In this document: positions 1 to 46,019 of the stretch, one piece after another | Layout: the number at the start of each line of letters is the position of its first letter | Position numbering within the stretch: position 1 is the first letter of the stretch | Sequence record: NC_054909.1 | Length of the DNA: 64,000 nucleotides | Reading direction: 5' to 3' (one strand) | Origin: Escherichia phage EC121 | Made by a program: the position numbers and the translations under genes | Notes under the pieces: model-generated | What the model was told of the DNA's origin: nothing | Seen by the model: the letters and a program-made list of their open reading frames with translations, nothing else | Database searches by the model: none

Positions 1-2178
1 TTAGGCCGCAAGGGCCTTCATAGTTTTAGCGATTTGGGAAACTTCATCATCACTCAAAGAGCTGCGATAACCGATGAAGTCGGAAACAATACGGAATTTC
101 TTGGTAAACTCAGCAACCATTTTATCACTGTTTTTTGAAGCATTATTTGATAATACATCAAAAAGATTAGTTATTGTCCAGATGTCATGACCGATGGTAT
201 CTTTTCCACCGTTGAAATATACACCCTGTAATGAACTAACCATATTAGCGAGTCGTGTATATTCTTCAGAAACTTCATCTATACTGAAGTACTTCATCAT
301 AAAATCTAATTCAGGATACTTAATAATTTTATCAATATATCGTTTAGCTGAACTTGAATAACCTACATACTTATCATAATCTACAGCATCAAAAGCATCT
401 ACATATAAATCACGTAGAGTTTCAAAAATACATTGGCACTGACCAAGTTCTTTTACCTTTTTCTGTAAAAGTGGACGAATAACATAAAATTCATTAATGC
501 CAATAAGATTAGCCATACGAGTCAAAATACTCGTAGATGGATGACAAAGCGATGTAGTACCATCCATAGAGAAAATATCAGAACGATGCATATACGCTAC
601 ATAACCAGTAATTTCATCTGCTTCTGATGTGAGTGTAAACAGTTCCTCTTTTTCCCAGCGTCCGTCTTTAATTTCAAACTTAAATGCAGTAGCAGCTTTA
701 GGACGAGGAGCTTTACTTTTAACTACCTTCGGAATATAACTTTTAACTAAAGCTTCAATTTCTGACAAATAATGAATGTTAACTTCATCACTTTCAAACA
801 TTGCCATAATATCAGGGAGTAAATCAATCTGCGATTCTACTTCCGGATTAATAAACAGAAGACGCTCATTGTGATGAATATTTAAAGTGTTATTAAATTC
901 ACTATCATCTAATGCACGTGCTAATCCACGGATAATATTAACACGATTTTTAATATTATCAATGACGATATTAATTTTTGTTGTGTTAATACCAAACAAA
1001 CGATAGCTTGACGCAACGGCTGAAGTTTCATGACTTTGCTTAATGCGTTTCAGTCGAGGGTCAAGATTTACTTCATACACAACCCCTGCATTGCATAACT
1101 TACTGTCAGGTTCAAACATGCTCTGCATCTTCTTATATGACAGATTTTTAGTCGTGAATTTGACCGAATTACTAATCATATAATCTCGAGCAGAATACCC
1201 CATCTTCATCAATTCACGGTATGTATGACGAGGAGATGTAGATTCTTTAAATCGTTTTACATCTTCATTAAATGCCTTCTCACTGAGTTCTTTAACACGC
1301 TCAATAATATTTTTACGAGTACGATCATCTAATGAAAGAGCCTCACGCGATGGAGCAATATCAAGTGAACCCATTGGAAACTTAATGTAATTCACTTCAT
1401 TGCGGATGCTTAACCAGTTACGGTCTCTAATAACACCATCAATAGGATAAACAATACCGCCATAGATAGCGTACAATCCACCACGATCTGGCCAATATCT
1501 TTCTGGATTTACACCGTAATAGTCATCAAAATCCGGAAAATAATCAATTTCACGGTCAAGACCATTAATGATAGCCAAATCTTTGAATGGTCGCATGATA
1601 TAAGAAACTTCATAAGCAAAGTTTCTAAAGTCTTTTTCTTCAACTGGAACTACGATTTCAATACCAGTTTTATCGTTTGGACCCATTTCTTTTACGAATG
1701 TAGGTTTAATCTGCGGACCGTCACCATCCATGTAAGCTACATAACCGCGAATTTCACCTTTATGGTACGAAGTAATACTAAACGTATCAGTATAACTAAA
1801 CGGAGATTTAGAACCTAAACCAAATCCACCAATGAAATCGTTAGATTCAGCCTTAGATGAACTAAAGTATGAATTATACAACCCGGGAGAATTATCATCA
1901 CCTTGAATATCAAAATCGCTCATACCTGGACCAAAATCTCGGCAAACAAATCGTGGATCTAAACGTCCAGGAACTTGAATGATAAATTTTTCAGGATTTC
2001 CATTGAGAGCATGGGCATCAATCATGTTGGTAATCAATTCACGGACTACTGCGCGAATCTTGTTTGTATACAAGTCAGATGACAGAATTTTAAATACTTT
2101 AGGAGATGCTGTGATGCTAAATGCTTTTGATTTAGAACCATTACCAAGAATTGTTTCTTTTTCAGTGGTGATAATCAT
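1..2178 (-). CDS. rIIA: rIIA protein (membrane-associated, rapid-lysis / exclusion-sensitivity locus)
   Basis: 725-aa ORF; stop codon at positions 1-3; sequence and length agree with recalled T4 rIIA. Confidence 0.95.
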
Positions 2179-2188
2179 AATTTCCTCA

Positions 2189-2392
2189 TTAATTCATATT
2201 GCGTTTAATAACTTCAGCAACTTCTAGTAGTTCATCTTTAGTTGCGGTGTCGGATTGAATTTTATCTCTAATATCCTTAAAGCGGTTTTTAAACTCTTCA
2301 GCTTCTCCCATATCGAAAAAGCGTTGAATGATTCTATATTCTCGATGAACTGCTTTATCAAAAAGTTCTAAATTTACTTTATATGATTTCAT
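2189..2392 (-). CDS. rIIA.1-like small protein
   Basis: 67-aa ORF immediately upstream of rIIA, same strand, 10-nt spacing; position matches T4 rIIA.1. Confidence 0.6.
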
Positions 2393-2417
2393 TTCAATAT
2401 CCTCATTTGCCCAATTA

Positions 2418-2447
2418 ATTATACCACATCCTTGTGGTAAAGTAAAC
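2418..2447 (-). promoter_or_regulatory. sigma70-type early promoter (GTTTAC, 17 nt, TATAAT)
   Basis: Minus strand reads GTTTACTTTACCACAAGGATGTGGTATAAT just upstream of rIIA.1; a near-identical copy lies at 48692-48721. Confidence 0.6.
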
Positions 2448-4264
2448 TACTGGCTCATCCATTCTTTACGAAGGTCAGCATTATCCCCCATGAGCATTTC
2501 AAAAAGCTCTTTCCAATTCTCAGGAAGTTTAACAACATCATATACTGGGTTTTGAATCATCTCACGATATTCAGATTTTTCCAAAGAGCCAAGTCCCTTA
2601 ATATAACGGATGCTATGTTTAGGTAGAGCATCTTTGGCACTCTCATATTCAGCGACCGTATAAAACCATTCTTGTTTTTTACCGACCTGAGCGATGATTA
2701 CGGGAGTTTTGACGAAGCGAATTCTTCCTTGTTCAAACAGTTCTGGCCAATTACTAAAAAATCCGAGCAGAGAAGGATAAATGCTTCCTAGACCATCGTG
2801 GTCAGCATCAGTCATAATAGCAATATTATGATAATTCAAGTTTTCAGCCTTTTCACCAAGAACTAATCCAGTGATTGCGCAAATATCAAACAGTTCTTTG
2901 TTTTTAAGCATATCAGCATATGACATACCCCAACTGTTGAGAACTTTACCACGTAATGGATAACCGCCATGAAGTTCTTTATCACGAACATCAATAAGAT
3001 ATCCGATAGCAGAATCACCCTCAGTCAAGAAAAGAGTAGTGTCAGCGTCTTTACCGCAAAGATTCGCTTTAATATGTTTATGAACCTTAGCTTTAGAAGC
3101 CTTTTTAGCTGCTTTAGTTTCTGCTGCCTTTTCTGCCGCCAATTTACGAGCCAAAGCAGCTTCAATAATTGGCATTAAAATTGCTTCATTATTTAAAATA
3201 GCACGTGAAATCTTTTTAGCATCAAGCTGAATATGACTACGAATTTCACCAAATGGAGAAGTCAAACGCTCTTTAGTCTGAGAATCAAATCGCATGTTTT
3301 TCATATCACGAACAAACATAACGATAGTCAAACATTCTTTAACCCGTGCTTTAGTTACATCAATTTTGAACTTACGTTTGATTTGTGGAATAAGGTCTTC
3401 ACAAATATCATCCATAACGCAGTCAATGTGATGGCCGCCATTCTTAGTATGAATGTTATTAACGTATGTTAATTGACGAAAACCATCCAGTGAACGACCA
3501 ATCGCAATAGAACAATTTTCTTGTTCTTGAACGATAGCATGCTCATCATATTGGCGTGCGTATTTCTTAAAATTGCCCTGAACCTTTTTACCATTAAAGG
3601 TAAATTGAATATCAGGATAAACTACTGCAAGTGTCTGGAGACGATCTAGTGTAATGTCAAGATAAACCTGAGATAGCTCATTAGTTTCAAATGACATAAA
3701 ATCAGGAATGAAAGTAACACGAGTTCCTTTCCATTTTCCAGGAATAGTTTCCCATGATTTATTTTCCATGCCATTTGAACAACGAACTACAATATTATTT
3801 TGACCATCGCCAGTTTCACCGACAAACATCACAGAAAAAATGTTAGTTAAACTAGAACCAACACCGTTCATACCGCCAGTGACGCGTTCTTTATCATCAC
3901 CGAAGTTACCACCTGCTTTTGGAATAGTCCAGGCGGCAACAGGACCAGGAATTTCTTCGCCAGTAGGTGTTTTAACCATCGCTTGTGGAATACCACGACC
4001 GTTATCTTCAACAGTTACTTGATTGTTTTTAATAGTAACATTAATTTTATTCGCGAATTTAAACTTAGTACGAATACCTTCATCTACCGAGTTATCGATA
4101 ATTTCATCAATAAGCTTAACAAGACCAGGTACATACTGAACACTTTCCCATTTACCAAACAGAAAGCGCTCATGCATTTCATTAGCGGAAGAGCCAATGT
4201 ACATGCCGCTACGCTTTTTGATATGTTCAATATCGCTCAGAATTTTAATTTCATTCTTAATCAT
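2447..4264 (-). CDS. 39: DNA topoisomerase II large subunit, uninterrupted gp39 (T4 gene 39 plus gene 60 as one ORF)
   Basis: 605 aa from ATG at 4264 (track start 4267 is GTG); GyrB-like ATPase N-terminus; C-terminal 160 aa matches recalled T4 gp60 with no bypass gap or mobA insertion. Confidence 0.92.
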   Translation of the reverse strand: MIKNEIKILSDIEHIKKRSGMYIGSSANEMHERFLFGKWESVQYVPGLVKLIDEIIDNSVDEGIRTKFKFANKINVTIKNNQVTVEDNGRGIPQAMVKTPTGEEIPGPVAAWTIPKAGGNFGDDKERVTGGMNGVGSSLTNIFSVMFVGETGDGQNNIVVRCSNGMENKSWETIPGKWKGTRVTFIPDFMSFETNELSQVYLDITLDRLQTLAVVYPDIQFTFNGKKVQGNFKKYARQYDEHAIVQEQENCSIAIGRSLDGFRQLTYVNNIHTKNGGHHIDCVMDDICEDLIPQIKRKFKIDVTKARVKECLTIVMFVRDMKNMRFDSQTKERLTSPFGEIRSHIQLDAKKISRAILNNEAILMPIIEAALARKLAAEKAAETKAAKKASKAKVHKHIKANLCGKDADTTLFLTEGDSAIGYLIDVRDKELHGGYPLRGKVLNSWGMSYADMLKNKELFDICAITGLVLGEKAENLNYHNIAIMTDADHDGLGSIYPSLLGFFSNWPELFEQGRIRFVKTPVIIAQVGKKQEWFYTVAEYESAKDALPKHSIRYIKGLGSLEKSEYREMIQNPVYDVVKLPENWKELFEMLMGDNADLRKEWMSQ

Positions 4265-4317
4265 CACTTATCCTCGTTTGGTTTCGGGAATATTATACTC
4301 CGGTAATCATAAAGCTA

Positions 4318-21800: not shown

Positions 21801-22643
21801 TTAATCAACTGCTATTGGATGAATAGCATTAAACTTATGAAACGCTTCTGATTTTTCTTTGCGCGAAACACACATGCGAAGAACTTTTAATGGCTCGTCT
21901 TCTTCACCCAACGATTTTCTCTTTTCGATATTCGATGTTTTCCAACGAGCTTGCTCTGGAAACTCTCTATTGATTTGCTCAAGAGCTCTATTATGTTTTG
22001 AATTACTACGAATTGAACTACATCCGCCTGGAGCTTGTGCTTTTCCAGATACAACCAGATATTTGAACAAGGCCAAATGCGGATAACCTTGATTAATTAA
22101 ATTGAGAAATGCATACATATCTTCGCATAAATCAATTTTTCCATACCCAATTTGTTCTGTCGTAAGTTTTCCAAGGTCATACCATGTATTCGTGAATCCA
22201 TATGAATTTTCACGATAATTACCCCAAGATGAAGTAATTTTAAAAATTGGTAGACGAGCATGGCCATGATAATATCCGCAATCCATGGCATCCTCAACAT
22301 ATTGAATCAATTCATAGAACTGTTCACGAGTTAATTGATTAATTTTATCTACACAGCGACGATCATCTTTCTTTCGCATTGAACTCATACGAATAGTAGT
22401 ATCATCGTCAATCATCCAAATTCGTTGACCTGCATACATATCAGTAATTGCTTTACGAGTACCAGCAATTCCATTGACATCATCAGGAATAGTTATAATT
22501 TTAGCTCTAGACCCATAAGCGTCATAATAAGCTTTTTCTTCGTGTTTACGTACTACAATATGAGGTTCATAATCAGATGGAAACATATCAAGGGCAGAAA
22601 CTGCCCCGACACGCTGATAACTTGGAATTACGAATTGAATCAT
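21801..22643 (-). CDS. GT-A fold glycosyltransferase at the beta-glucosyltransferase locus
   Basis: 280 aa; VIPSYQR start and IDDDT (DxD) motif; unlike recalled T4 beta-gt; sits between uvsX and gene 42. Confidence 0.6.
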   Translation of the reverse strand: MIQFVIPSYQRVGAVSALDMFPSDYEPHIVVRKHEEKAYYDAYGSRAKIITIPDDVNGIAGTRKAITDMYAGQRIWMIDDDTTIRMSSMRKKDDRRCVDKINQLTREQFYELIQYVEDAMDCGYYHGHARLPIFKITSSWGNYRENSYGFTNTWYDLGKLTTEQIGYGKIDLCEDMYAFLNLINQGYPHLALFKYLVVSGKAQAPGGCSSIRSNSKHNRALEQINREFPEQARWKTSNIEKRKSLGEEDEPLKVLRMCVSRKEKSEAFHKFNAIHPIAVD

Positions 22644-23281
22644 TTAAGTGCCTTACATTTGTCAAAATGGTATCTTGTCATATTTGGCCCACGTCCTTTT
22701 AGTCCGCAATGCGGACATATTTTTTCTATCAAATTATGAGGTTTTCCTTTACGATTTTTAGACATCGTTTCTTTAATTATTTTAGCTTTTTCTACGCCAA
22801 AAATTTCTTCATAAGTTTTACCAGAATTTTCCTTGGCTCGATTTATAATTCCATATGCCTGCTCATTTTTACCATACATTGGATTACCTTCGCCTTTCAT
22901 TCTTTTAGAATGATCAGGACGCTTGATTCCACGAAAGGCATTTCCGCACTTATATCTTTCTTCTGGAGATAGTTTTTTACCGTACATTCCATTTAATTTG
23001 CCTGGAAAACTTCCTCCCCATGCTTCATTCTTTAAATTATATGAATCCGGACAATTAGCAGCATCTAAACAAGTTAAAATAATTTCTTCAACCTGTCTAA
23101 ACATTGGTCCTTCATATAATATTTCTTTATTAAAGGATTTTATTCCATATTTCTTTTTAGCATGTTGCCAAACTACACCCGAACCATCATAATTCGGGTT
23201 GTGACCATCATGACTTCCTATATACCACTTTTTAGTTTTAGGATGTTTATACTTATAAACATGTGGCACATTTACTTCCAT
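22640..23281 (-). CDS. free-standing GIY-YIG homing endonuclease (Seg-like)
   Basis: 213 aa; VYKYKH...KWYIGS motif, repeated NUMOD-like segments (NPMYGK), C-terminal CPHCG...C zinc finger; paralog of 42362-43192. Confidence 0.7.
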   Translation of the reverse strand: MEVNVPHVYKYKHPKTKKWYIGSHDGHNPNYDGSGVVWQHAKKKYGIKSFNKEILYEGPMFRQVEEIILTCLDAANCPDSYNLKNEAWGGSFPGKLNGMYGKKLSPEERYKCGNAFRGIKRPDHSKRMKGEGNPMYGKNEQAYGIINRAKENSGKTYEEIFGVEKAKIIKETMSKNRKGKPHNLIEKICPHCGLKGRGPNMTRYHFDKCKALK

Positions 23282-32168: not shown

Positions 32169-33851
32169 TTAAACCATTACAGTAAATCGACCAACTTTCT
32201 TCATTTGAAGATGCTGACCGTATTCTTGCGGGTCATGGTCTTTATGCGAAATTATAAAAACATTAGTGTTTTTCATTGAATTTATAATATTAGCTACACC
32301 TTTAATACCTTCGGCATCAAATGACCCATCAAACACTTCATCGAGTATTAATGTACTAATACTAACACCAGATACAATAGAAGCAATATCACGCCAAGTA
32401 AATAAAAGAGCAATATCAATTCTTGCTTTTTCACCTTCACTAAATGAAGCATAACTAAAATCTTCGCGACCACGGGATTTAATTGTCTCATTAAATTCTT
32501 CATCTAATGTAAACACATAATCCGCTTCCATTATTTTAAGATAATGGTTAATCTGCTTATTAAATAATGGAATGTACTTTTTAATAATAGCACCTTTAAT
32601 ACCAGAATCTTTGAGCATATCAGTCAAAATTCCTCGGTGGTATTTTTCCATTACTAAATTAGTTTTTGTCTTAACAATTTTATCAAGTTCTTCTTGAAGC
32701 AGTGCTATTTCATCAGCATGGTCAATAAACTCAGAAGATGCTTTTTCTATAGCCGCTTTAACCTTTTTAGCTTTATCTACTGTCGTGATTAGAGATTGCT
32801 TTTTATTGCGAATATCATTTGCCAACGACTGTTGGGTTTTAATATTATCTCGGTATTCATCAACAAGAACTTTTAAATTATCACGATGCGTTGAAAGCTG
32901 CTCAAACGAATGCGTGCATTCAGAAACTTTATCTTTAATTTTAGAAACAACTTTATCACCGGAACTCAATTGTGACAAACAGGTTGGACATAATCCACCT
33001 TCGTGATACATATTAATGACTTTATTATACGAGTCAATTTTCGATTTAATTAAAAATGCTTCTTGGCCGATTTTATTAAATGCATCAGTCGGGTCTTCAT
33101 CCAAAACAATATTAACTAATCTTTCATTAGCTTCTTCTATTTCCGATTTTAGCGTTCTAGCTTCTTTTGCTAAATCATCATACATATTTTGCAGACGAGT
33201 AAGGTTGTCACCCGTTAATTTTTTCTGGCGTTCAACGTTATCATTATATATTTTAATTTGTTGGATAATATTATCTTTTTTAACATCAAGCACCTGGTTC
33301 TGCGAATTTAATTCACGTATTAGTGCTTTATTAAGCTTATCCATTTCAGCTAATGTTCCTACCTCAAGCAGGTCTTCCACAAGCTTTCTTCGCGCAGGGG
33401 TCGACAAACCCATGAAAGGGGTATACCCTGCTGTACCAAGGACAACAATCTGCTTGAAACTGGCATATGACATTCCGATAAGCTGTTCAAATTCTGCTTG
33501 GAAATCTTTACTGCTGGCAGATTCATTAAGACGTGTACCGTTAACGGTGATTTCGAAAACGTTTGGTTTTTGTCCTCTTTTGATATAGTACTTTTTCTCA
33601 TCATATTCCATCCACAGTTCAACTAAAAGTTCTTTCTTATTTGTGCTGTTTATTAATTGACCTTTCTTTACATCACGAAATGGCTTGCCAAAAAGCCCAA
33701 ATGTGATGGCTTCTAGCATAGTAGACTTACCACCGCCATTTCGTCCAGTAATAAGAGTTTTTTGAACCTTATCTAATTGAATGTCAACTCCATTTTGACC
33801 AACTGACATTATATTTTTATATTTTACTCTATTAAGTTTAAATGATTTCAT
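32169..33851 (-). CDS. 46: recombination endonuclease subunit gp46 (SbcC/Rad50-like)
   Basis: 560 aa; Walker A GRNGGGKST, coiled-coil middle, CPTC zinc hook, ABC signature. Confidence 0.96.
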   Translation of the reverse strand: MKSFKLNRVKYKNIMSVGQNGVDIQLDKVQKTLITGRNGGGKSTMLEAITFGLFGKPFRDVKKGQLINSTNKKELLVELWMEYDEKKYYIKRGQKPNVFEITVNGTRLNESASSKDFQAEFEQLIGMSYASFKQIVVLGTAGYTPFMGLSTPARRKLVEDLLEVGTLAEMDKLNKALIRELNSQNQVLDVKKDNIIQQIKIYNDNVERQKKLTGDNLTRLQNMYDDLAKEARTLKSEIEEANERLVNIVLDEDPTDAFNKIGQEAFLIKSKIDSYNKVINMYHEGGLCPTCLSQLSSGDKVVSKIKDKVSECTHSFEQLSTHRDNLKVLVDEYRDNIKTQQSLANDIRNKKQSLITTVDKAKKVKAAIEKASSEFIDHADEIALLQEELDKIVKTKTNLVMEKYHRGILTDMLKDSGIKGAIIKKYIPLFNKQINHYLKIMEADYVFTLDEEFNETIKSRGREDFSYASFSEGEKARIDIALLFTWRDIASIVSGVSISTLILDEVFDGSFDAEGIKGVANIINSMKNTNVFIISHKDHDPQEYGQHLQMKKVGRFTVMV

Positions 33852-33866
33852 TTTGTATCCAATTGT

Positions 33867-34721
33867 TCACAATGAAGAAAATTCTTTAACTAAAGCCTGT
33901 AATGAAGCCTCTATTGGATATCCATTCTTAACTAACATTTTCCTAAACATTACATGTTTAGGACGATTATATGATATCCACAATTCATACAATTTATCTT
34001 TATTATCCCAATGATAGCCTTTTCGTCGAGATGCTATATGAGCTTTTCTAATCTCCGGATTTTTCCAACTAGCAGCTACTGAATTTGATATAGCTATTTT
34101 ATATTCAGGTTTTGATAAAGCAGCACGAACAGCCTTTTGGTGTTTAATTTTATTTTCTTCGTTATTAAACCATTCCCTTGAAGCCATTGAAATTTTTTGT
34201 TTTGTTTTAAAATTATTTAATCTTTCTTTATTATCTTTCCTATTTTTTGCTACTGAAAAATATTTTAATGCCCTTTCTCTAGCAGCATTTCTATTTTGCG
34301 GATTTGAATAATACTGTTGAAGCCTTTTTGATATTGTGTCACTTACATCTTGTTTTATAAAACTATATTCAGCAGCTATTAAATCAACTTCGGCTAAAGA
34401 TAAATTTTTATATGTTTTTCCTGACATCATTCTATTTAAAGCATTTAACATTTTTCCATTTTTACCTTTTGCTAATAAGAAGTGTGCTTTAAAATGATTA
34501 AAATGACTTAAATTAACTAAATTCCATGTAGATTTTAAATATTCAGGAAATATTGATTTAGGAAGCACGTGGTGTGCTTCCGTTTTACCTGGAGTTTTAA
34601 CAGTTGAATTCACAGAAATAAAATTAATGTAAGACTTGGCGTCTTCTTCACTCAACGCTAATTTTTCAACTAATTCCTTTATTAAAAATTCATCATTAAT
34701 GTCAAGTTTAAAATTCTTCAC
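33867..34721 (-). CDS. free-standing HNH homing endonuclease (Mob-like)
   Basis: 284 aa from GTG with AAGGA RBS; HNH motif TEAHHVLPKS; NUMOD-like repeats. Confidence 0.7.
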   Translation of the reverse strand: MKNFKLDINDEFLIKELVEKLALSEEDAKSYINFISVNSTVKTPGKTEAHHVLPKSIFPEYLKSTWNLVNLSHFNHFKAHFLLAKGKNGKMLNALNRMMSGKTYKNLSLAEVDLIAAEYSFIKQDVSDTISKRLQQYYSNPQNRNAARERALKYFSVAKNRKDNKERLNNFKTKQKISMASREWFNNEENKIKHQKAVRAALSKPEYKIAISNSVAASWKNPEIRKAHIASRRKGYHWDNKDKLYELWISYNRPKHVMFRKMLVKNGYPIEASLQALVKEFSSL

Positions 34722-34981: not shown

Positions 34982-35168
34982 TATCTAAAATGTTGAAGTT
35001 AAAAGATACAGCCCAGTCAGTGCAGACCGTAACCTTTTTAATACAATTATCTTCAACCTCTAGCGGTTCAAACCAATATTCAATAATTTCTTTATGCCCA
35101 ATATCATCTTTTACTTCGCATTCAAAATGCTGACTCATCATAACATTTTTAAATTCATCAAAAGTCAT
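34905..35168 (-). CDS. small hypothetical protein
   Basis: 87-aa ORF overlapping the gene 47 stop by 4 nt. Confidence 0.45.
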   Translation of the reverse strand: MTFDEFKNVMMSQHFECEVKDDIGHKEIIEYWFEPLEVEDNCIKKVTVCTDWAVSFNFNILDNDTPKSLQDMAVSCIKDAYCEVFDI

Positions 35169-36184
35169 TGTGTTGCCTCTACATATAGCTGATTCGCATA
35201 TTGAATAAGTGCTTCACGGTCAGAATCAGTGATGTCTGGAATTGCATTAATGTATTCTTCCATCAACGTCTGAAGAGATTGAACTTCAACTTCTTCACTG
35301 TCATCTGACTCGACAGAGTTATCAATCTTTGACACAACTCGTAACGAATGCACAACTTTTTCTAGTTCAGATTCGAACTTCGTCAGATTTTTGTCTACTT
35401 CAGTTACTATAACACGTACTGATAGATTTGTAAAATCTTTATAGTCAATTTTTCCCTTAAATGGATATTGAATTCGACGATGCCAGGTAGTGTTGTTTGG
35501 AATAAATTCCATTCGTTCTGTTTCTGTGTCAAACATCCAGAACCCACGAGGGTCATTCTCGTCACCTGCAGTTAGTGTCCATGGTGTCCCAATATATCTG
35601 ACGTTTGCAGCCTCAGAAATAGTATGGAAGTGACCAGACCACACTTCTTTATAAGTCTTAAGGAAATCAGGTTCAAGACCGTGAGATTTCATTCCTTTAT
35701 AAAAATAAAATCCATTCAGTTCCCAGTGACCAACACAAAAAGAAGCAGATGAAGTTTTGATGTGTTCAAGAATTTCACCAGTATTTTCTTCGCACATCCA
35801 AGGAATTAAATCAATCAAACACCCGTCAAAATCTACTGTTGTAGGCTTATCATATACTTTAACATTAGGATATTTAGCCAAAAGCTCAGTAGAGGCATTT
35901 GGATGCATTACATTTTTGTAGTGGAGATCGTGATTTCCTACAATAGTATGTAGGGTAATACCAGCACCATCAAGCATTTGAACTATTTCACGGGCAAACT
36001 CCATAGTTTTATGCGTGATCGCTTTTCGCACATCAAAAATATCACCGTATTGAATCCATACCGTAATTCCATTTTTCTTAGAATATTCTATCGCTTGCTT
36101 AATTCCATCAATTTGAATACCGCGAATCCACTCATCATCAGCTTTAACGCCTAAATGCCAATCACCTAAATTTAAAATTTTCAT
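35165..36184 (-). CDS. 47: recombination nuclease subunit gp47 (SbcD/Mre11-like)
   Basis: 339 aa; calcineurin-like phosphoesterase motifs (DWHLG, GNHD). Confidence 0.96.
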   Translation of the reverse strand: MKILNLGDWHLGVKADDEWIRGIQIDGIKQAIEYSKKNGITVWIQYGDIFDVRKAITHKTMEFAREIVQMLDGAGITLHTIVGNHDLHYKNVMHPNASTELLAKYPNVKVYDKPTTVDFDGCLIDLIPWMCEENTGEILEHIKTSSASFCVGHWELNGFYFYKGMKSHGLEPDFLKTYKEVWSGHFHTISEAANVRYIGTPWTLTAGDENDPRGFWMFDTETERMEFIPNNTTWHRRIQYPFKGKIDYKDFTNLSVRVIVTEVDKNLTKFESELEKVVHSLRVVSKIDNSVESDDSEEVEVQSLQTLMEEYINAIPDITDSDREALIQYANQLYVEATQ

Positions 36185-39057: not shown

Positions 39058-39135
39058 TTTCACCTCTTAGCTCAATTCATAGATCTATTATATCATAATA
39101 TTTGAAGATCTATCTTAAAGCATAGAGGATATCAG

Positions 39136-39405
39136 TTATCTAAGTAAGCAGTATGCTTGGAACACTTTCTCCATCATCTTTTTAAATTCATGAATATCTA
39201 TGTAATGACTAGTTAAATCAGCGTGATATAAAAAGTCTAAAAACTTTTCATGCGTGCTAACATATTCACTTTCATTTAATTCAGAAACATGGCTTTCCCA
39301 ATATCCAACACCAGTCTTATTTGGGAAAAATGAAATTTTCATGTATTGATCAACATAGAAAATGCCATAATTTTCAATAGTAATAGAAATATTAATAAAT
39401 TTCAT
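39136..39405 (-). CDS. small hypothetical protein
   Basis: 89-aa ORF. Confidence 0.45.
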   Translation of the reverse strand: MKFINISITIENYGIFYVDQYMKISFFPNKTGVGYWESHVSELNESEYVSTHEKFLDFLYHADLTSHYIDIHEFKKMMEKVFQAYCLLR

Positions 39406-40954: not shown

Positions 40955-41278
40955 TTAGTCTTCTATGATATCTCTATCATATCCAAGTGAAATGAGAGTT
41001 TCTTTGAAGTGTTTAATGTTCTTTTGTCTAGAATCATTAATGAAAATGACTGGATAACGAATGTTAAGAGATGTAAATCCAGCGCGTTTAGCAAGAGATA
41101 CAATCAGTGGACGATCATACTCGATCTTACCATTATTTGTAAGAACTTTATAGAAAGTAAAAGGAGCATTGAGCTCCTTTAGAAGTTTTGTAACTGATTG
41201 ACATCCAGGACAACGACCAACTTCATCTGGAATTCCATAGACTTCAATCTTATTCTTTAAGTTCGAGTTTTGTTCCAC
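40955..41278 (-). CDS. nrdH: glutaredoxin-like protein NrdH
   Basis: CPGC active site in KIEVYGIPDEVGRCPGCQ; no in-frame ATG near the fold start, so a GTG start with AAGGA RBS is proposed (track over-extends to 41407). Confidence 0.6.
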   Translation of the reverse strand: MEQNSNLKNKIEVYGIPDEVGRCPGCQSVTKLLKELNAPFTFYKVLTNNGKIEYDRPLIVSLAKRAGFTSLNIRYPVIFINDSRQKNIKHFKETLISLGYDRDIIED

Positions 41279-41561
41279 GAGAAATAATTCCTTGATAAGC
41301 CCAATATGGCGGGTTAACAGAATCATCGCCAGAATTTTCTTCAGGAAAATAAACCTGGATAACAAATCCAGATTCATCAAAGGTAAAATAAACCGTAGGT
41401 AATTCACCTAACAATTCAGCACGATTATTAATTTCTTCGAGTTCTCGTTCACGTCCGGCCCAAAAACTAGGATTTAGACTACATTCATAGAAATAATAGT
41501 CATTACCGAACATATCAAAACCATTCCAACTCTCTACCACATACCGCTCAAAACTAATCAT
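41250..41561 (-). CDS. hypothetical protein
   Basis: 103-aa ORF. Confidence 0.45.
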   Translation of the reverse strand: MISFERYVVESWNGFDMFGNDYYFYECSLNPSFWAGRERELEEINNRAELLGELPTVYFTFDESGFVIQVYFPEENSGDDSVNPPYWAYQGIISRGTKLELKE

Positions 41562-41563
41562 AA

Positions 41564-41779
41564 TTAAGCCTTTTTATCAAGAACAGCATTCAGTTTGCTA
41601 GTAATTTTATCCAGACGCTCATTGAACTCGCTAGAAGACAGTCCTTTTTCTGGAGAAATCAAACTAATCACGAAAAATATAGCAATAAAAGGAATAAGGA
41701 AAATAGCTCCAACTGCCATAAACAGAAAGAATGTTACAGTTGTAAGAAAATCAGCTAAACCTTTACGAAATTTATACAT
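41564..41779 (-). CDS. small membrane protein
   Basis: 71 aa; long hydrophobic N-terminal segment. Confidence 0.45.
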   Translation of the reverse strand: MYKFRKGLADFLTTVTFFLFMAVGAIFLIPFIAIFFVISLISPEKGLSSSEFNERLDKITSKLNAVLDKKA

Positions 41780-41894
41780 ATTTTACCCTTAATTGATTAA
41801 CCAAGCATTGATAAGCACTAAACTATACTGTGAATAAAATTCTGGACCAAAATGAAAAATCATATCATTTATAGTATCCATAATATAATTCAAT

Positions 41895-42365
41895 TTAATC
41901 ATGTTTCCACACCCCATCGGTATTTGACCAAAGTCGCTGATTATCTGATCCTCGCCACAGCTTTTTAGTCGGAAGATTTTTCTCATACTTCCCATCAATA
42001 ATAACATCAACATATTTAAGCATTTCTAGTTGTTTAATATCTTCAAACTTATATCCTGTCCACAACCAAATGCTTTTATTTGGATAAAGATTTTTTACTG
42101 TTTGAACAATGCAATGAACAGCATCTCGGTTATCAGGATAGAGAGGGTCTCCTCCAGTTATAGTTAATCCTTCTATATAATCGTTATTCAAACATTCAAT
42201 TAATTGTTCCAGCGTTTCACCAGTGAATGGAACACCATTTCTAGCATTCCATGTTGATTTATTATAACACCCTTCGCATTTATGCAAACAACCTGTAACG
42301 AAAAGAACGACCCTGCAACCAGGGCCATTCACAAAGCAGCACGGGTATATTCTGTCATAATTCAT
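41895..42365 (-). CDS. nrdG: anaerobic ribonucleotide reductase activase NrdG (radical SAM)
   Basis: 156 aa from ATG at 42365; cysteine cluster CLHKCEGC; ATGA overlap with the upstream endonuclease gene. Confidence 0.9.
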   Translation of the reverse strand: MNYDRIYPCCFVNGPGCRVVLFVTGCLHKCEGCYNKSTWNARNGVPFTGETLEQLIECLNNDYIEGLTITGGDPLYPDNRDAVHCIVQTVKNLYPNKSIWLWTGYKFEDIKQLEMLKYVDVIIDGKYEKNLPTKKLWRGSDNQRLWSNTDGVWKHD

Positions 42366-43192
42366 AATAATATCCAATTTTTCCAAGCTTCATCAGTAGA
42401 ATTACAGCGTTTTAGTATAAGATGTCTAGAAACTTTTATGGCATTTGAGCACTTTTTAATTGAATCATATTTAATACCGTCAACTGAAACGGTTTTGCTA
42501 GTTGGAGAAATTTTTCCATACATTGGATTTTTTGAACCAACTTGAAGTCCTTTTAAAGCTTTTGAAAGCTTTTGTCTAGATTCCAATGACATGGGAGAAT
42601 TCTTTTTACCTTCAATAATTCGCTTGCGATGAAGTTCGCGTTCTTCTTCACTCAAAGAATTGTAATATTTTTTAACACCGTTTGATATAGATAATTTATC
42701 TTTCTCAGACCGCTCTCCAGCTAATTTACTTCTAACATCTTTTCGCTTCATAGCTATGCTTACGGCTTTATTTAAATTTGCTTGATGCTCTGGCGTACGT
42801 TTATATTTCTTTAAAGCACGTGAAATAGCTATTTTAGTTTCTTCTGTTCTCTTTTTACCTTTATTTGCTAAACTATTTTTGCGGCGATGTTCAAGTGTCT
42901 GTTCATAGGCAGTTCCACCTTTTCCACCAGGTTTAATATTATATGTATTTTCTTTTAGACAATACTCTTCGGTTACAAGTTCAGCTTCTTTATCATACAT
43001 TTGTTTTTCATTATCAAAAACATGTAAAATTTCTTTATTAAAATTTTTTCTACCATATTTTAATAAAGCGGCACGAATCAATGTTCCTGACCCCATATAA
43101 CCGTCATTTATGTTATCGGTGCTATGCGCACCGATATATTCCTTTGAATTAATTATATTTGTTATTTTATAAATTATATAATACCTATGCAT
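42362..43192 (-). CDS. free-standing GIY-YIG homing endonuclease
   Basis: 276 aa; canonical YYIIYKITN...KEYIGAH motif, NUMOD-like repeats, C-terminal HTH-like tail; wedged between nrdD and nrdG with overlaps on both sides. Confidence 0.8.
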   Translation of the reverse strand: MHRYYIIYKITNIINSKEYIGAHSTDNINDGYMGSGTLIRAALLKYGRKNFNKEILHVFDNEKQMYDKEAELVTEEYCLKENTYNIKPGGKGGTAYEQTLEHRRKNSLANKGKKRTEETKIAISRALKKYKRTPEHQANLNKAVSIAMKRKDVRSKLAGERSEKDKLSISNGVKKYYNSLSEEERELHRKRIIEGKKNSPMSLESRQKLSKALKGLQVGSKNPMYGKISPTSKTVSVDGIKYDSIKKCSNAIKVSRHLILKRCNSTDEAWKNWILL

Positions 43193-45002
43193 GTTTTACT
43201 CGTTTTACCATTTCTTTCATTTTACCTAAATTCCATGGAACAACGCTAGGAGTTCCAAGATATCCGCATGTTCTTCTTATTGTGTTCATCTTTTTAGGAT
43301 CAGTTTCTCCACAAATAGAACAAACAAACCCGTTTTCAGTAGGAGTCATTTCATGGGTACTTCCGCATGTAAAACACTTATCTACTGGCATGTTAACACC
43401 AAAATAATCTAAATGTTGTGCAGCATAATCCCACACGGCCTCAAGACCTTTTAAGTTATTTTTCATATCAGGAAGTTCAACATAAGAAATGTGACCACCT
43501 GTCGCAATGAAATGATATGGCGCTTCACGAGAAATCTTTTCAAACGGAGTAACATTTTCTTCTACTGAAACGTGGAAACTGTTAGTGTACCAGCCTTTAT
43601 CAGTAACATCCTTTACACTTCCATATTTTTCTGTATCAAGTTTACAGAAGCGATAGCAAAGGTTTTCAGCAGGAGTAGAATACAAGCTAAAAGCAAAACC
43701 AGTTCTTTCAGTCCACTGTTTAAGATGAGCATTCATTTTAGTTAAAATTTCTTGTCCAATATCACGACCGACAAGAATATTCAATTCGTGAATACCAATG
43801 TATCCCAAAGACACTGAACTTCTACCGTTTTTAAATAACTCAATTATGTCGTCATCAGGTTTAAGACGAACCCCAAATGCACCTTCTTGGTAAAGAATAG
43901 GAGCAACAGTAGCTTTAACTCCTTTTAAGGAACTAATTCTACACATCAAAGCTTCAAAACACAAATCCATTCGCTCATTGAATAATTCAGTAAATTTCTG
44001 TTCATTGAATTGTGTTCCAATATAAGAATCTAACGCAATACGAGGAAGATTCAGTGTTACAACACCAAGATTATTACGTCCATCAAGAATTTCATTACCA
44101 GTCGAATCTTTCCATACGCTCAAGAAACTACGGCAACCCATTGGAGAAACAGGAACAGATGAACCAGTGATAGCTTTATTGTTCTTAGCTGAAATAATAT
44201 CAGGATACATCCTTTTGCTTGCACACTCTAAAGCAAGCTGCTTAATATCATAGTTCGGATCGTCTTTATAAAGATTAACACCTTCTTCAACGAACATAAC
44301 AAGTTTAGGGAAAATAGGAGTTATCCCATCACGACCAAGACCTTTAATACGATTTTTCAGAATTGCTTTCTGAATCATTCGTTCAGTCCAGTCAGTTCCC
44401 GTACCAAATGTAATTGTTACAAAGGGTGTTTGTCCGTTTGAACTAAAGAGAGTATTTACTTCATATTCATAAGCTTGGAATGCATCGTATACATCTTTTT
44501 CTGTTTTAGATTGAGCATAATTCAATGCATCAGCGATTTGCCATTTTTCTGCATCCTCAATATGTTTTGCATAGGTGCGTTTAACATAAGGAGAAAGTAC
44601 TTTATCTACATTAGCAAAAGTCGTTCCGCCGTATTGGTGGGAAGCAACCTGTGCAGTAATTTGTGCCATAATTGCAGTAGCAACGCCAATTGATTTAGGA
44701 GTTTCAATCTGCGCATTACCTAGCTTAAATCCGTTCTCAAGCATTCCTTTTAAATCTACTAAACAACAATTAGTAAATGGAAGAGCAGGGGAATAATCAA
44801 TATCATGGAAATGAATAATTCCGCTTTCATGCGCTTTCATAATAAAAGACGGGACCATATTTTTGGCAATGTGTTTAGACACAATACCAGCCATAAGGTC
44901 CCGTTGAGTTGGAAAAACACGAGAATCTTTATTAGCATTCTCGTTCAAAAGGTCTTTATTAGTTTTATGAATCAATCCTTCAATTTCTTTTTCAATTGTC
45001 AT
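43185..45002 (-). CDS. nrdD: anaerobic ribonucleoside-triphosphate reductase NrdD, intronless
   Basis: Contiguous 605-aa ORF; C-terminal glycyl-radical region and zinc ribbon CFTCGS...CSICG. Confidence 0.97.
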   Translation of the reverse strand: MTIEKEIEGLIHKTNKDLLNENANKDSRVFPTQRDLMAGIVSKHIAKNMVPSFIMKAHESGIIHFHDIDYSPALPFTNCCLVDLKGMLENGFKLGNAQIETPKSIGVATAIMAQITAQVASHQYGGTTFANVDKVLSPYVKRTYAKHIEDAEKWQIADALNYAQSKTEKDVYDAFQAYEYEVNTLFSSNGQTPFVTITFGTGTDWTERMIQKAILKNRIKGLGRDGITPIFPKLVMFVEEGVNLYKDDPNYDIKQLALECASKRMYPDIISAKNNKAITGSSVPVSPMGCRSFLSVWKDSTGNEILDGRNNLGVVTLNLPRIALDSYIGTQFNEQKFTELFNERMDLCFEALMCRISSLKGVKATVAPILYQEGAFGVRLKPDDDIIELFKNGRSSVSLGYIGIHELNILVGRDIGQEILTKMNAHLKQWTERTGFAFSLYSTPAENLCYRFCKLDTEKYGSVKDVTDKGWYTNSFHVSVEENVTPFEKISREAPYHFIATGGHISYVELPDMKNNLKGLEAVWDYAAQHLDYFGVNMPVDKCFTCGSTHEMTPTENGFVCSICGETDPKKMNTIRRTCGYLGTPSVVPWNLGKMKEMVKRVKHA

Positions 45003-45472
45003 TTTAAACTCTTTCTAAGCTGCTTCTTGAATGAAGCTATTAATTGTGTTTTGGTGTCAGATTCATTATATTCAAATCCTCTTTGAAGCATCTCGGCCAT
45101 CATTTCCTCTTTTCCTAAACGAGAAAATTCCTTTGATTTATCTCCAACGAAGTTAGGGTGAATATTATTTTGGGTGTAATCGGATTTTAAATAAGTAAGT
45201 AAATTTTCTAACCATTCAAGATAATCAACACCTTGTCCCTTTAAGCCAGAACGATTAAATTTATGCTTCATTTGACCTTCTGCGGCATTGCAGAGATTAC
45301 AAAGCAATCCACGTACCTTTCCTGCTTTTGGTCCATTTAATTCATGGTCATGGTCGAGGTGATTAGCTTGAACGTCAGGATTTAGTTCTCGTTGGCAAAT
45401 TAAGCATTTACCATTTTGTGCATCATAAAATTTCTGTTTTTCTTCTTTGTATAATTTGCCAGTCAATAACAT
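44999..45472 (-). CDS. 49: endonuclease VII (Holliday junction resolvase) gp49
   Basis: 157 aa; zinc-binding CLICQ...CNLCN and H-N-H-like core. Confidence 0.9.
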   Translation of the reverse strand: MLLTGKLYKEEKQKFYDAQNGKCLICQRELNPDVQANHLDHDHELNGPKAGKVRGLLCNLCNAAEGQMKHKFNRSGLKGQGVDYLEWLENLLTYLKSDYTQNNIHPNFVGDKSKEFSRLGKEEMMAEMLQRGFEYNESDTKTQLIASFKKQLRKSLK

Positions 45473-45515
45473 AATAAAACCCTTACCTTAAATAGATAAG
45501 GGTATTTATTATTTT

Positions 45516-46019
45516 TCAAGTATTGTAAAACATTTGATGCAATCGCTTATATTGCTGAATCATTCGGTCAGAAAAAGAAATTTGAGTTTCAAGCCATTCA
45601 ATGTATTCTGCGGCAGCTTGCATCAGGTTACCTTCATAGCCATCGTTATTTTCTTGCGCAGCTAATTTAGCTAATGCGTATGAAATACGTTCACCTTGAA
45701 AATCGGCTTTAGGCTTCTGAACAACTTGATTAGTTCGCTCTACAACTTCTTCAATTTCGCCATTTTCGACTGATTCAGTATTCCATAAGCACCAATACGT
45801 AATTGACTTATCATAGATATTAATAATCTTTCCGTCGGAAAGTTCAATTTCAATAATTCCAGTATCAGGCTCTATATCATCTTCACATTCTTTTGCAAGT
45901 TCACGAACTTTAAAGACAGTACCTGCACTAAGTTCCGGCCAGTAATTACACAGCCCTGTATCAGCACGATTAATTCTAAACCACTTATCTACTGTAATCA
46001 TGTCCCATCTCCATATCAA
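45516..46019 (-). CDS. hypothetical protein at the pin locus
   Basis: 167-aa ORF between gene 49 and nrdC; assignment to Pin would be by position only. Confidence 0.45.
   Translation of the reverse strand: MIWRWDMITVDKWFRINRADTGLCNYWPELSAGTVFKVRELAKECEDDIEPDTGIIEIELSDGKIINIYDKSITYWCLWNTESVENGEIEEVVERTNQVVQKPKADFQGERISYALAKLAAQENNDGYEGNLMQAAAEYIEWLETQISFSDRMIQQYKRLHQMFYNT

Follow-up and report, generated by a model that had tools for sequence, protein, structure and literature searches.

A segH homing endonuclease gene at the nrdD-nrdG junction of Escherichia phage EC121, beside an intronless nrdD

The 276-aa open reading frame between nrdD and nrdG in Escherichia phage EC121 is segH, a gene of T-even phages that has already been named, deposited and characterised. 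The best explanation of the locus, which we hold with high confidence, is that a T-even (Tequatrovirus) phage harbours, between nrdD and nrdG, a selfish homing endonuclease gene that is free-standing and belongs to the Seg group (GIY-YIG). The original prediction had proposed a free-standing GIY-YIG gene spreading by intronless homing beside an intronless nrdD, and this is supported by the sporadic distribution of segH, by an island of near-zero divergence around it and by the absence of any insert at the T2 site. The finding, though right, is unremarkable and matters little beyond correct annotation. The check settles the gene call, corrects which end of nrdD is overlapped, and documents in current genomes the population signature expected of a mobile endonuclease, a near-zero-divergence cassette in about 10% of relatives.

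All coordinates are positions in the window, the 64,000-nt stretch of the EC121 record (NC_054909.1) that was analysed, at the left of the T-even genome. The genes of the locus all read along the minus strand and follow one another as gene 49 (endonuclease VII, 44999-45472), nrdD (43185-45002), segH (42362-43192) and nrdG (41895-42365). NrdD, the large subunit of the anaerobic ribonucleotide reductase, has 605 aa, the length of T2 NrdD, and matches the Pfam family NRDD in one stretch over residues 21-604 (2.6e-171), together with Gly_radical (8e-25). NrdG, the anaerobic RNR activase, matches Fer4_12 (1.2e-48) and Radical_SAM. The mechanical list of open reading frames starts nrdG farther upstream, at a TTG at 42386 inside segH; starting from the ATG at 42365 gives a protein of 156 aa whose N-terminus, MNYDRIYPC, aligns with NrdG of T2 and T4. 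The segH frame is real and starts with ATG; its coordinates, its length and its place between nrdD and nrdG are as had been predicted.

Both ends of segH overlap a neighbour, as read directly in the sequence. On the sense strand the segH ATG lies within AAAACATGCATAGG, whose TAG (43185-43187) is the nrdD stop codon, and the two genes share the 8 nt ATGCATAG (43185-43192, minus strand). At the other end the segH TGA lies within TTATTATGAATTATG, whose ATG is the nrdG start, and the shared sequence is ATGA (42362-42365, minus strand), which bears out the predicted 4-nt overlap with the start of nrdG. The 8-nt overlap had been assigned to the start of nrdD. Its length was right but its place was not: because nrdD, segH and nrdG follow each other in that order along the minus strand, the overlap falls at the 3' stop codon of nrdD, whose start is at 45002.

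nrdD in the window is intronless. In a blastn comparison with T4, homology through nrdD runs from 45600 to 44467 and resumes at 44464, with T4 about 1 kb longer at that point. With the junction taken between GAGT and ATGAAG, the T4 intron is exactly 1033 nt and maps to window position 44465/44466; the additional 1033 nt are solely in T4, and for 30 nt on each side of the insertion site the window is identical to T2. An Rfam search of 41000-46000 at E<=0.1 returned no family and no group I intron, and over the whole 64 kb no Rfam family reached its gathering score. The T4 locus, used as a control for the search, gave Intron_gpI at 105 bits. Since the window is identical to T2 at the insertion site, and since no Rfam family was found while the T4 control was detected, a hidden group I intron was rejected, and the single continuous 605-aa frame described in the original prediction, matched in one stretch by Pfam NRDD, holds.

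The absence of the intron is incidental, not a necessary partner of segH, because SP21535, GRNsp7 and fPS-2 carry segH together with an intron-containing nrdD and its endonuclease ORF. Mutual exclusion of segH and the nrdD intron was rejected on the strength of these three phages.

The identity of the gene follows from deposited sequences. The window protein is identical to RB3 SegH (ABI48949.1) at 276 of 276 residues and to T6 SegH (ABI48947.1) at 270 of 276, with six residues differing. At the DNA level segH is 99.9% identical to the RB3 gene (AY262138.2), 99.8% to that of LZ2 (AY262139.2) and 100% to that of PP01. In the RB3 and LZ2 entries the gene is labelled 'segH, SegH homing endonuclease' and lies between partial nrdD and nrdG, the T6 entry (AY262137.2) carries the same annotation, the PP01 record is annotated segH, and many GenBank records already label this gene segH or homing endonuclease. 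Both overlaps, and the position between nrdD and nrdG, are the same in the deposited RB3, LZ2 and T6 sequences, and nothing of substance distinguishes those genes from the one described here. What differs is the host genome, a different Tequatrovirus mosaic: over the 24 kb from 30000 to 54000 the window is about 96-97% identical to its best matches in the phage collection and identical to no record.

segH was reportedly named in 2005 as a free-standing GIY-YIG homing endonuclease gene, found in three of the 18 phages screened, in place of mobC. SegH is said to have cut DNA near its own locus, including the DNA of segH-containing phages, and segH to have homed in mixed infections. If SegH does cut segH-containing DNA, a simple picture in which only the empty allele is cut would be incomplete. 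A review of T4 mobile elements (PMC2988022) cites this SegH study (Sandegren, Nord and Sjoberg 2005, Nucleic Acids Res 33:6203) and describes SegH as a homing endonuclease; the title of the study, as cited there, implies both activity and homing.

The junction that segH occupies is filled in different ways in other phages. At this locus T4 has nrdG, the HNH gene mobC and an nrdD that the I-TevII intron interrupts. The blastn homology between the window and T4 breaks off at 43210 and is picked up again at 42373; T4 has mobC in between, and blastn found no DNA match between the 0.84 kb segH stretch and the 0.64 kb of T4 mobC. In T2 the site is empty, the nrdD stop overlapping the nrdG start directly as ATGA, an overlap that segH reproduces with nrdG. 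Megablast with the segH ORF found 71 phage records, 53 of them at 99% identity or above, and the gene is intact at 95-100% identity over at least 80% of its length in 69 of the 71. In the same collection mobC was found in 32 records and the adjoining nrdD segment in 702; segH occurs in roughly one relative in ten, and the majority carry neither segH nor mobC. segH is free-standing, in that it overlaps the nrdD stop and the nrdG start and is not inside an intron or an intein.

Two relatives have other arrangements. The Yersinia phage fPS-2 (L009 8125-10486) has three endonuclease genes around nrdD: segH, an intron ORF inside nrdD, and an 822-bp 'homing endonuclease' gene between nrdD and gene 49. 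The window is without the last two. FL18, an Escherichia phage of the Mosigvirus group (L005 2148-4109), carries nrdG and a segH that is 99-100% identical, while of nrdD just the final ~70 bp are present there. Between its segH and gene 49, in the place expected for nrdD, lies a 222-aa endonuclease-like ORF that matches PHROG 7504 at 1.7e-28 and NUMOD3.

Although the window is only about 96-97% identical to its best database relatives over 24 kb, its segH is 100% identical to that of many of them. We compared the positions of mismatches between the window and six segH-containing phages (SP21535, PP01, GRNsp7, RB3, fPS-2 and FL18). The minimal identity island, a putative mobile cassette, spans 42346-43262 on the minus strand (917 bp), with no mismatch to SP21535. 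Against PP01 there is no mismatch over 42277-43262 (986 bp), and against GRNsp7 none over 42331-43328 (998 bp); RB3, fPS-2 and FL18 show 2-6 mismatches over the same island stretch. Besides segH, the island takes in the final 70 nt of nrdD and the initial ~20-90 nt of nrdG. Its flanks differ by 2.8-4.4%, about one position in 25-35, and by our own arithmetic the chance of such a mismatch-free run at the flank rates is below 1e-11. A mismatch-free block of 0.9-1 kb within flanks that are 3-4% diverged implies a very recent transfer centred exactly on segH. Such an island is the expected product of recent horizontal copying with short co-conversion tracts.

The same observations bear on a different history, which we consider very unlikely, in which segH homed once but is now stranded or domesticated. 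It would be kept mainly because its removal would disrupt translational coupling as well as the 3' end of nrdD and the beginning of nrdG, and would spread by ordinary recombination. Both ends of segH do overlap essential-looking signals of its neighbours, and the version of the nrdD tail beside it is not the one found in phages that have no segH, so that segH could be deleted cleanly only with exact repair. The T2 operon, however, works without any insert, and so nearly complete a preservation of the reading frame (the 69 of 71 records above), the very recent date of a transfer centred on the gene, and the published activity and homing implied by the title of the 2005 study, as cited in PMC2988022, all argue against a gene that has ceased to move. 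We therefore prefer a selfish homing endonuclease gene.

The nrdD part of the island is strongly diverged from its counterpart in T2 and T4. Sequence comparison places this variant 3' end at 43193-43262 on the minus strand, starting right after the codons for RRTCGYLG, of the glycyl-radical motif. It encodes TPSVVPWNLGKMKEMVKRVKHA in place of the NPNERGFNLGKNKEIMHRVKHQ of T2 and T4, with many synonymous differences too. The 70-nt tail was found at 95% identity or above in 79 phage records, which comprise the segH carriers and at least five carriers of mobC. Its appearance is that of a fragment from a more distant donor genome, hitch-hiking with segH. The tail was also considered as a strict diagnostic of segH and rejected as such, with 79 tail records against 71 segH records and mobC carriers among the extras.

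The Escherichia phage 215Ecol030PP (L010 1940-2100, to be compared with 43185-43262 of the window) is a mobC carrier with the segH-type nrdD tail. The change from segH-type to T4-type sequence falls precisely on the 9-mer ATGCATAGG. In the window this 9-mer opens segH, and in T2, T4 and segH-less phages it forms the nrdD codons M-H-R; a 15-nt remnant of T4-type nrdD remains after the new stop. This junction suggests that one endonuclease gene may have been replaced by another through microhomology-guided break repair, and the hybrid between segH-type and mobC-type sequence provides a small clue to the way in which competing endonuclease genes oust one another from a single site. We tentatively offer the further reading, which we judge rather doubtful, that the unit that moves is a cassette of ~0.92-1.0 kb including the foreign nrdD tail, a possible determinant of the SegH target or of immunity, and that the junction reflects an ongoing turnover of endonucleases.

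The mobC gene of T4 occupies exactly the same nrdD/nrdG junction as segH and, according to the T4 review (PMC2988022), is likewise promoter-less and overlaps its neighbours. MobC is a putative free-standing endonuclease of an unrelated family, HNH in contrast to the GIY-YIG of SegH, and its activity is listed as not determined in that review. The two genes also differ in how they meet their neighbours: the MobC N-terminus reuses the first nrdG codons (MNYDRIY), whereas segH abuts the variant nrdD tail.

The original prediction had called the segH product a canonical GIY-YIG endonuclease. Its membership of the GIY-YIG superfamily stands, but 'canonical' does not: the relevant Pfam scores are below threshold and the first half of the motif pair is IIY, not GIY (residues 6-8), followed by YIG at residues 19-21. 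On its own SegH passes a single Pfam threshold, that of NUMOD3 (33.8 bits against a cut-off of 20.4; 3.1e-8). It falls below the cut-offs of SegE_GIY-YIG (PF19835; 18.6 bits against 25) and I-TevI_DNA-bd (21.1 against 27), and has no match to GIY-YIG itself (PF01541) at E<=0.01. Membership of the superfamily therefore comes from transitive homology and fold.

SegH falls in PHROG 314, 'homing endonuclease' (2.4e-60), and a large protein database contains 602 relatives at E<=1e-3, many with precomputed matches to PF01541 or PF19835. An alignment was made of 37 of the 602, which are 33-91% identical overall; the N-terminal domains of the wider list are up to 65% identical. At E<=0.001, 34 of the 37 match PF19835 and 21 match PF01541. 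The residues invariant among the 37 include Y8, Y19, G21, T25, D30, Y32, G34-S35-G36, E69 and N85. Searching the PDB with a profile of this alignment gave a sole match, the catalytic domain of I-TevI (1MK0), at a marginal E of 0.047, in which SegH Y8, Y19, G21, E69 and N85 align with I-TevI Y6, Y17, G19, E75 and N90. The family profile was needed to reach I-TevI, as a single-sequence phmmer search of the PDB with SegH gave noise only.

The predicted structure agrees with the profile. In an AF2 model built on the alignment, residues 1-90 have a pLDDT of 95-98, and the three best Foldseek matches in the PDB are the I-TevI catalytic domain (1MK0/1LN0; probability 1.00, TM 0.62-0.67, target-normalised), followed by the I-TevI DNA-binding domain 1I3J. 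The protein can be divided into an N-terminal catalytic domain of about residues 1-90, a linker of helical NUMOD3-type modules, and a C-terminal I-TevI-like DNA-binding module of about residues 226-273. On the combined basis of fold, profile and relatives, SegH is a Seg-type member of the GIY-YIG superfamily with a predicted modular architecture like that of I-TevI. The profile aligns no SegH residue with the catalytic arginine of I-TevI, R27: the stretch of I-TevI that holds R27 is inserted with respect to the SegH profile, and in place of helix 1 of I-TevI the model shows a loop at residues 26-36 (DGYMGSG).

I-TevI doubles as an autorepressor. That SegH might likewise be mainly a DNA-binding regulator, in its case of the nrd operon, with its nuclease activity lost, would fit the missing R27 counterpart, the sub-threshold GIY-YIG scores and the well-predicted DNA-binding modules, but is scarcely credible when none of the 37 diverse relatives varies at the two Tyr, the Glu and the Asn positions, when the Arg-less pattern is common to the whole Seg-type group (34 of 37 match SegE_GIY-YIG), when several members of that group are proven nucleases in the table of PMC2988022, and when the literature describes SegH as a homing endonuclease.

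As a homing endonuclease SegH has several known counterparts in T4. I-TevI, encoded by the td intron, is its best structural match, both in the catalytic domain, with a TM of 0.67, and in the DNA-binding region at the C-terminus. The two share a modular architecture of catalytic domain, linker and DNA-binding region at about 24% identity, but SegH is free-standing and I-TevI intron-encoded, no zinc finger was detected in SegH, and the R27 helix of I-TevI is replaced by the DGYMGSG loop. I-TevII, from the T4 nrdD intron, belongs to the same catalytic superfamily and targets the same operon as SegH, to which it is 30% identical by BLASTP over 128 residues (E 4e-6). It differs in being encoded in an intron, 1.3 kb away inside nrdD, and is absent from the window. 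The genes for T4 SegF, SegG, SegE and SegB, known for intronless homing and marker exclusion, are free-standing GIY-YIG genes between conserved genes, like segH, at different loci and with different targets. By the table of PMC2988022 these four cleave close to where they lie and pass on flanking markers together with themselves. Relatives of SegH match the Pfam family of T4 SegE, SegE_GIY-YIG, but the window SegH itself is below its threshold. For SegB, C, E, F and G of T4, as for SegH, cleavage in a co-infecting genome followed by recombinational repair from the copy that has the gene is the published behaviour, according to PMC2988022.

Searches for a promoter belonging to segH were negative. 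No match to the T4 late-promoter consensus TATAAATA was found within the locus, and there is no MotA-box-like site directly upstream of segH. Such a site lies upstream of nrdD, at 45090-45065. Matches resembling sigma-70 promoters are fewer at the locus than in shuffled sequences. A dedicated segH promoter was rejected on these three grounds, and because the searches were negative we conclude that segH is probably a promoter-less cassette in the nrdD-nrdG transcript. Several of the T4 seg and mob genes are likewise promoter-less, according to PMC2988022. The Shine-Dalgarno sequence of segH is weak, consisting only of GAG 9 nt upstream of the ATG, and the ATGCATAG overlap is likely to be a point of translational coupling.

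Inside segH, at 43114-43136, two perfect inverted 9-bp arms enclose a loop of 5 nt (TATCGGTGC GCATA GCACCGATA). This inverted repeat lies 56 nt downstream of the start codon, over the YIG codons, and is the most stable element of the predicted fold of the 5' RNA (z-score -2.2 for a 151-nt stretch). It may be there by chance.

It seems likely that the gene works as follows. segH would be read from the polycistronic nrdD-nrdG message, and its low-level translation would depend on coupling to the termination of nrdD at the 8-nt overlap. Translation of nrdG would in turn be coupled to the termination of segH at ATGA, and the insertion would then keep the operon working, as T2 couples nrdG directly. 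The modelled tail of NUMOD3 helices and a small C-terminal DNA-binding module should give SegH its site preference. On mixed infection with a phage that has no segH, SegH would cut the nrdD/nrdG region near its own locus, in line with the 2005 report, and the break would be repaired by phage recombination with the segH-containing genome as template. Repair would copy segH and some flanking sequence into the recipient, amounting to intronless homing with localized marker exclusion. The outcome would be the nearly invariant cassette of ~0.9-1.0 kb that is seen in otherwise diverged genomes.

Two further sporadic, free-standing, endonuclease-like genes are present in the window, at 33867-34721 and 22640-23281, both on the minus strand. 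The first, an ORF of 284 aa, has gene 46 (32169-33851) on one side and gene 47 (35165-36184) on the other. Its matches are PHROG 655, 'homing endonuclease' (7.8e-45), an HNH PHROG (4e-15) and, weakly, T4 MobC, with no Pfam match at E<=0.01. The full insert is present in ~70 of the 516 phage records that match that stretch, and the ORF looks like a second sporadic free-standing endonuclease gene. The other is a 213-aa Seg-like ORF that matches the SegH-relative profile (E 7e-13) and PHROG 314 (1.6e-31). It lies between ORFs of 280 aa and 246 aa, downstream of one of 393 aa; size and order suggest that these putative neighbours are uvsX, a glucosyltransferase of the T2/T6 type and gene 42.

The interval 1-4267 has a 725-aa ORF followed by an unsplit 606-aa ORF. 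Size and position suggest that these are rIIA and an unsplit gene 39, both putative, and on the same grounds the T4-specific gene 60/mobA/39 split appears to be absent there.

Closer to the nrd cluster, two minus-strand ORFs have no counterpart in the alignments with T4 and T2: one of 103 aa at 41250-41561 and one of 89 aa at 39136-39405, in gaps in T4/T2 homology at about 41255-41578 and 39131-39390. The 103-aa ORF is a 'hypothetical protein' in PP01, SP21535 and GRNsp7, and the 89-aa ORF is one in PP01, RB3 and fPS-2. These are further presence/absence cassettes near the nrd cluster.
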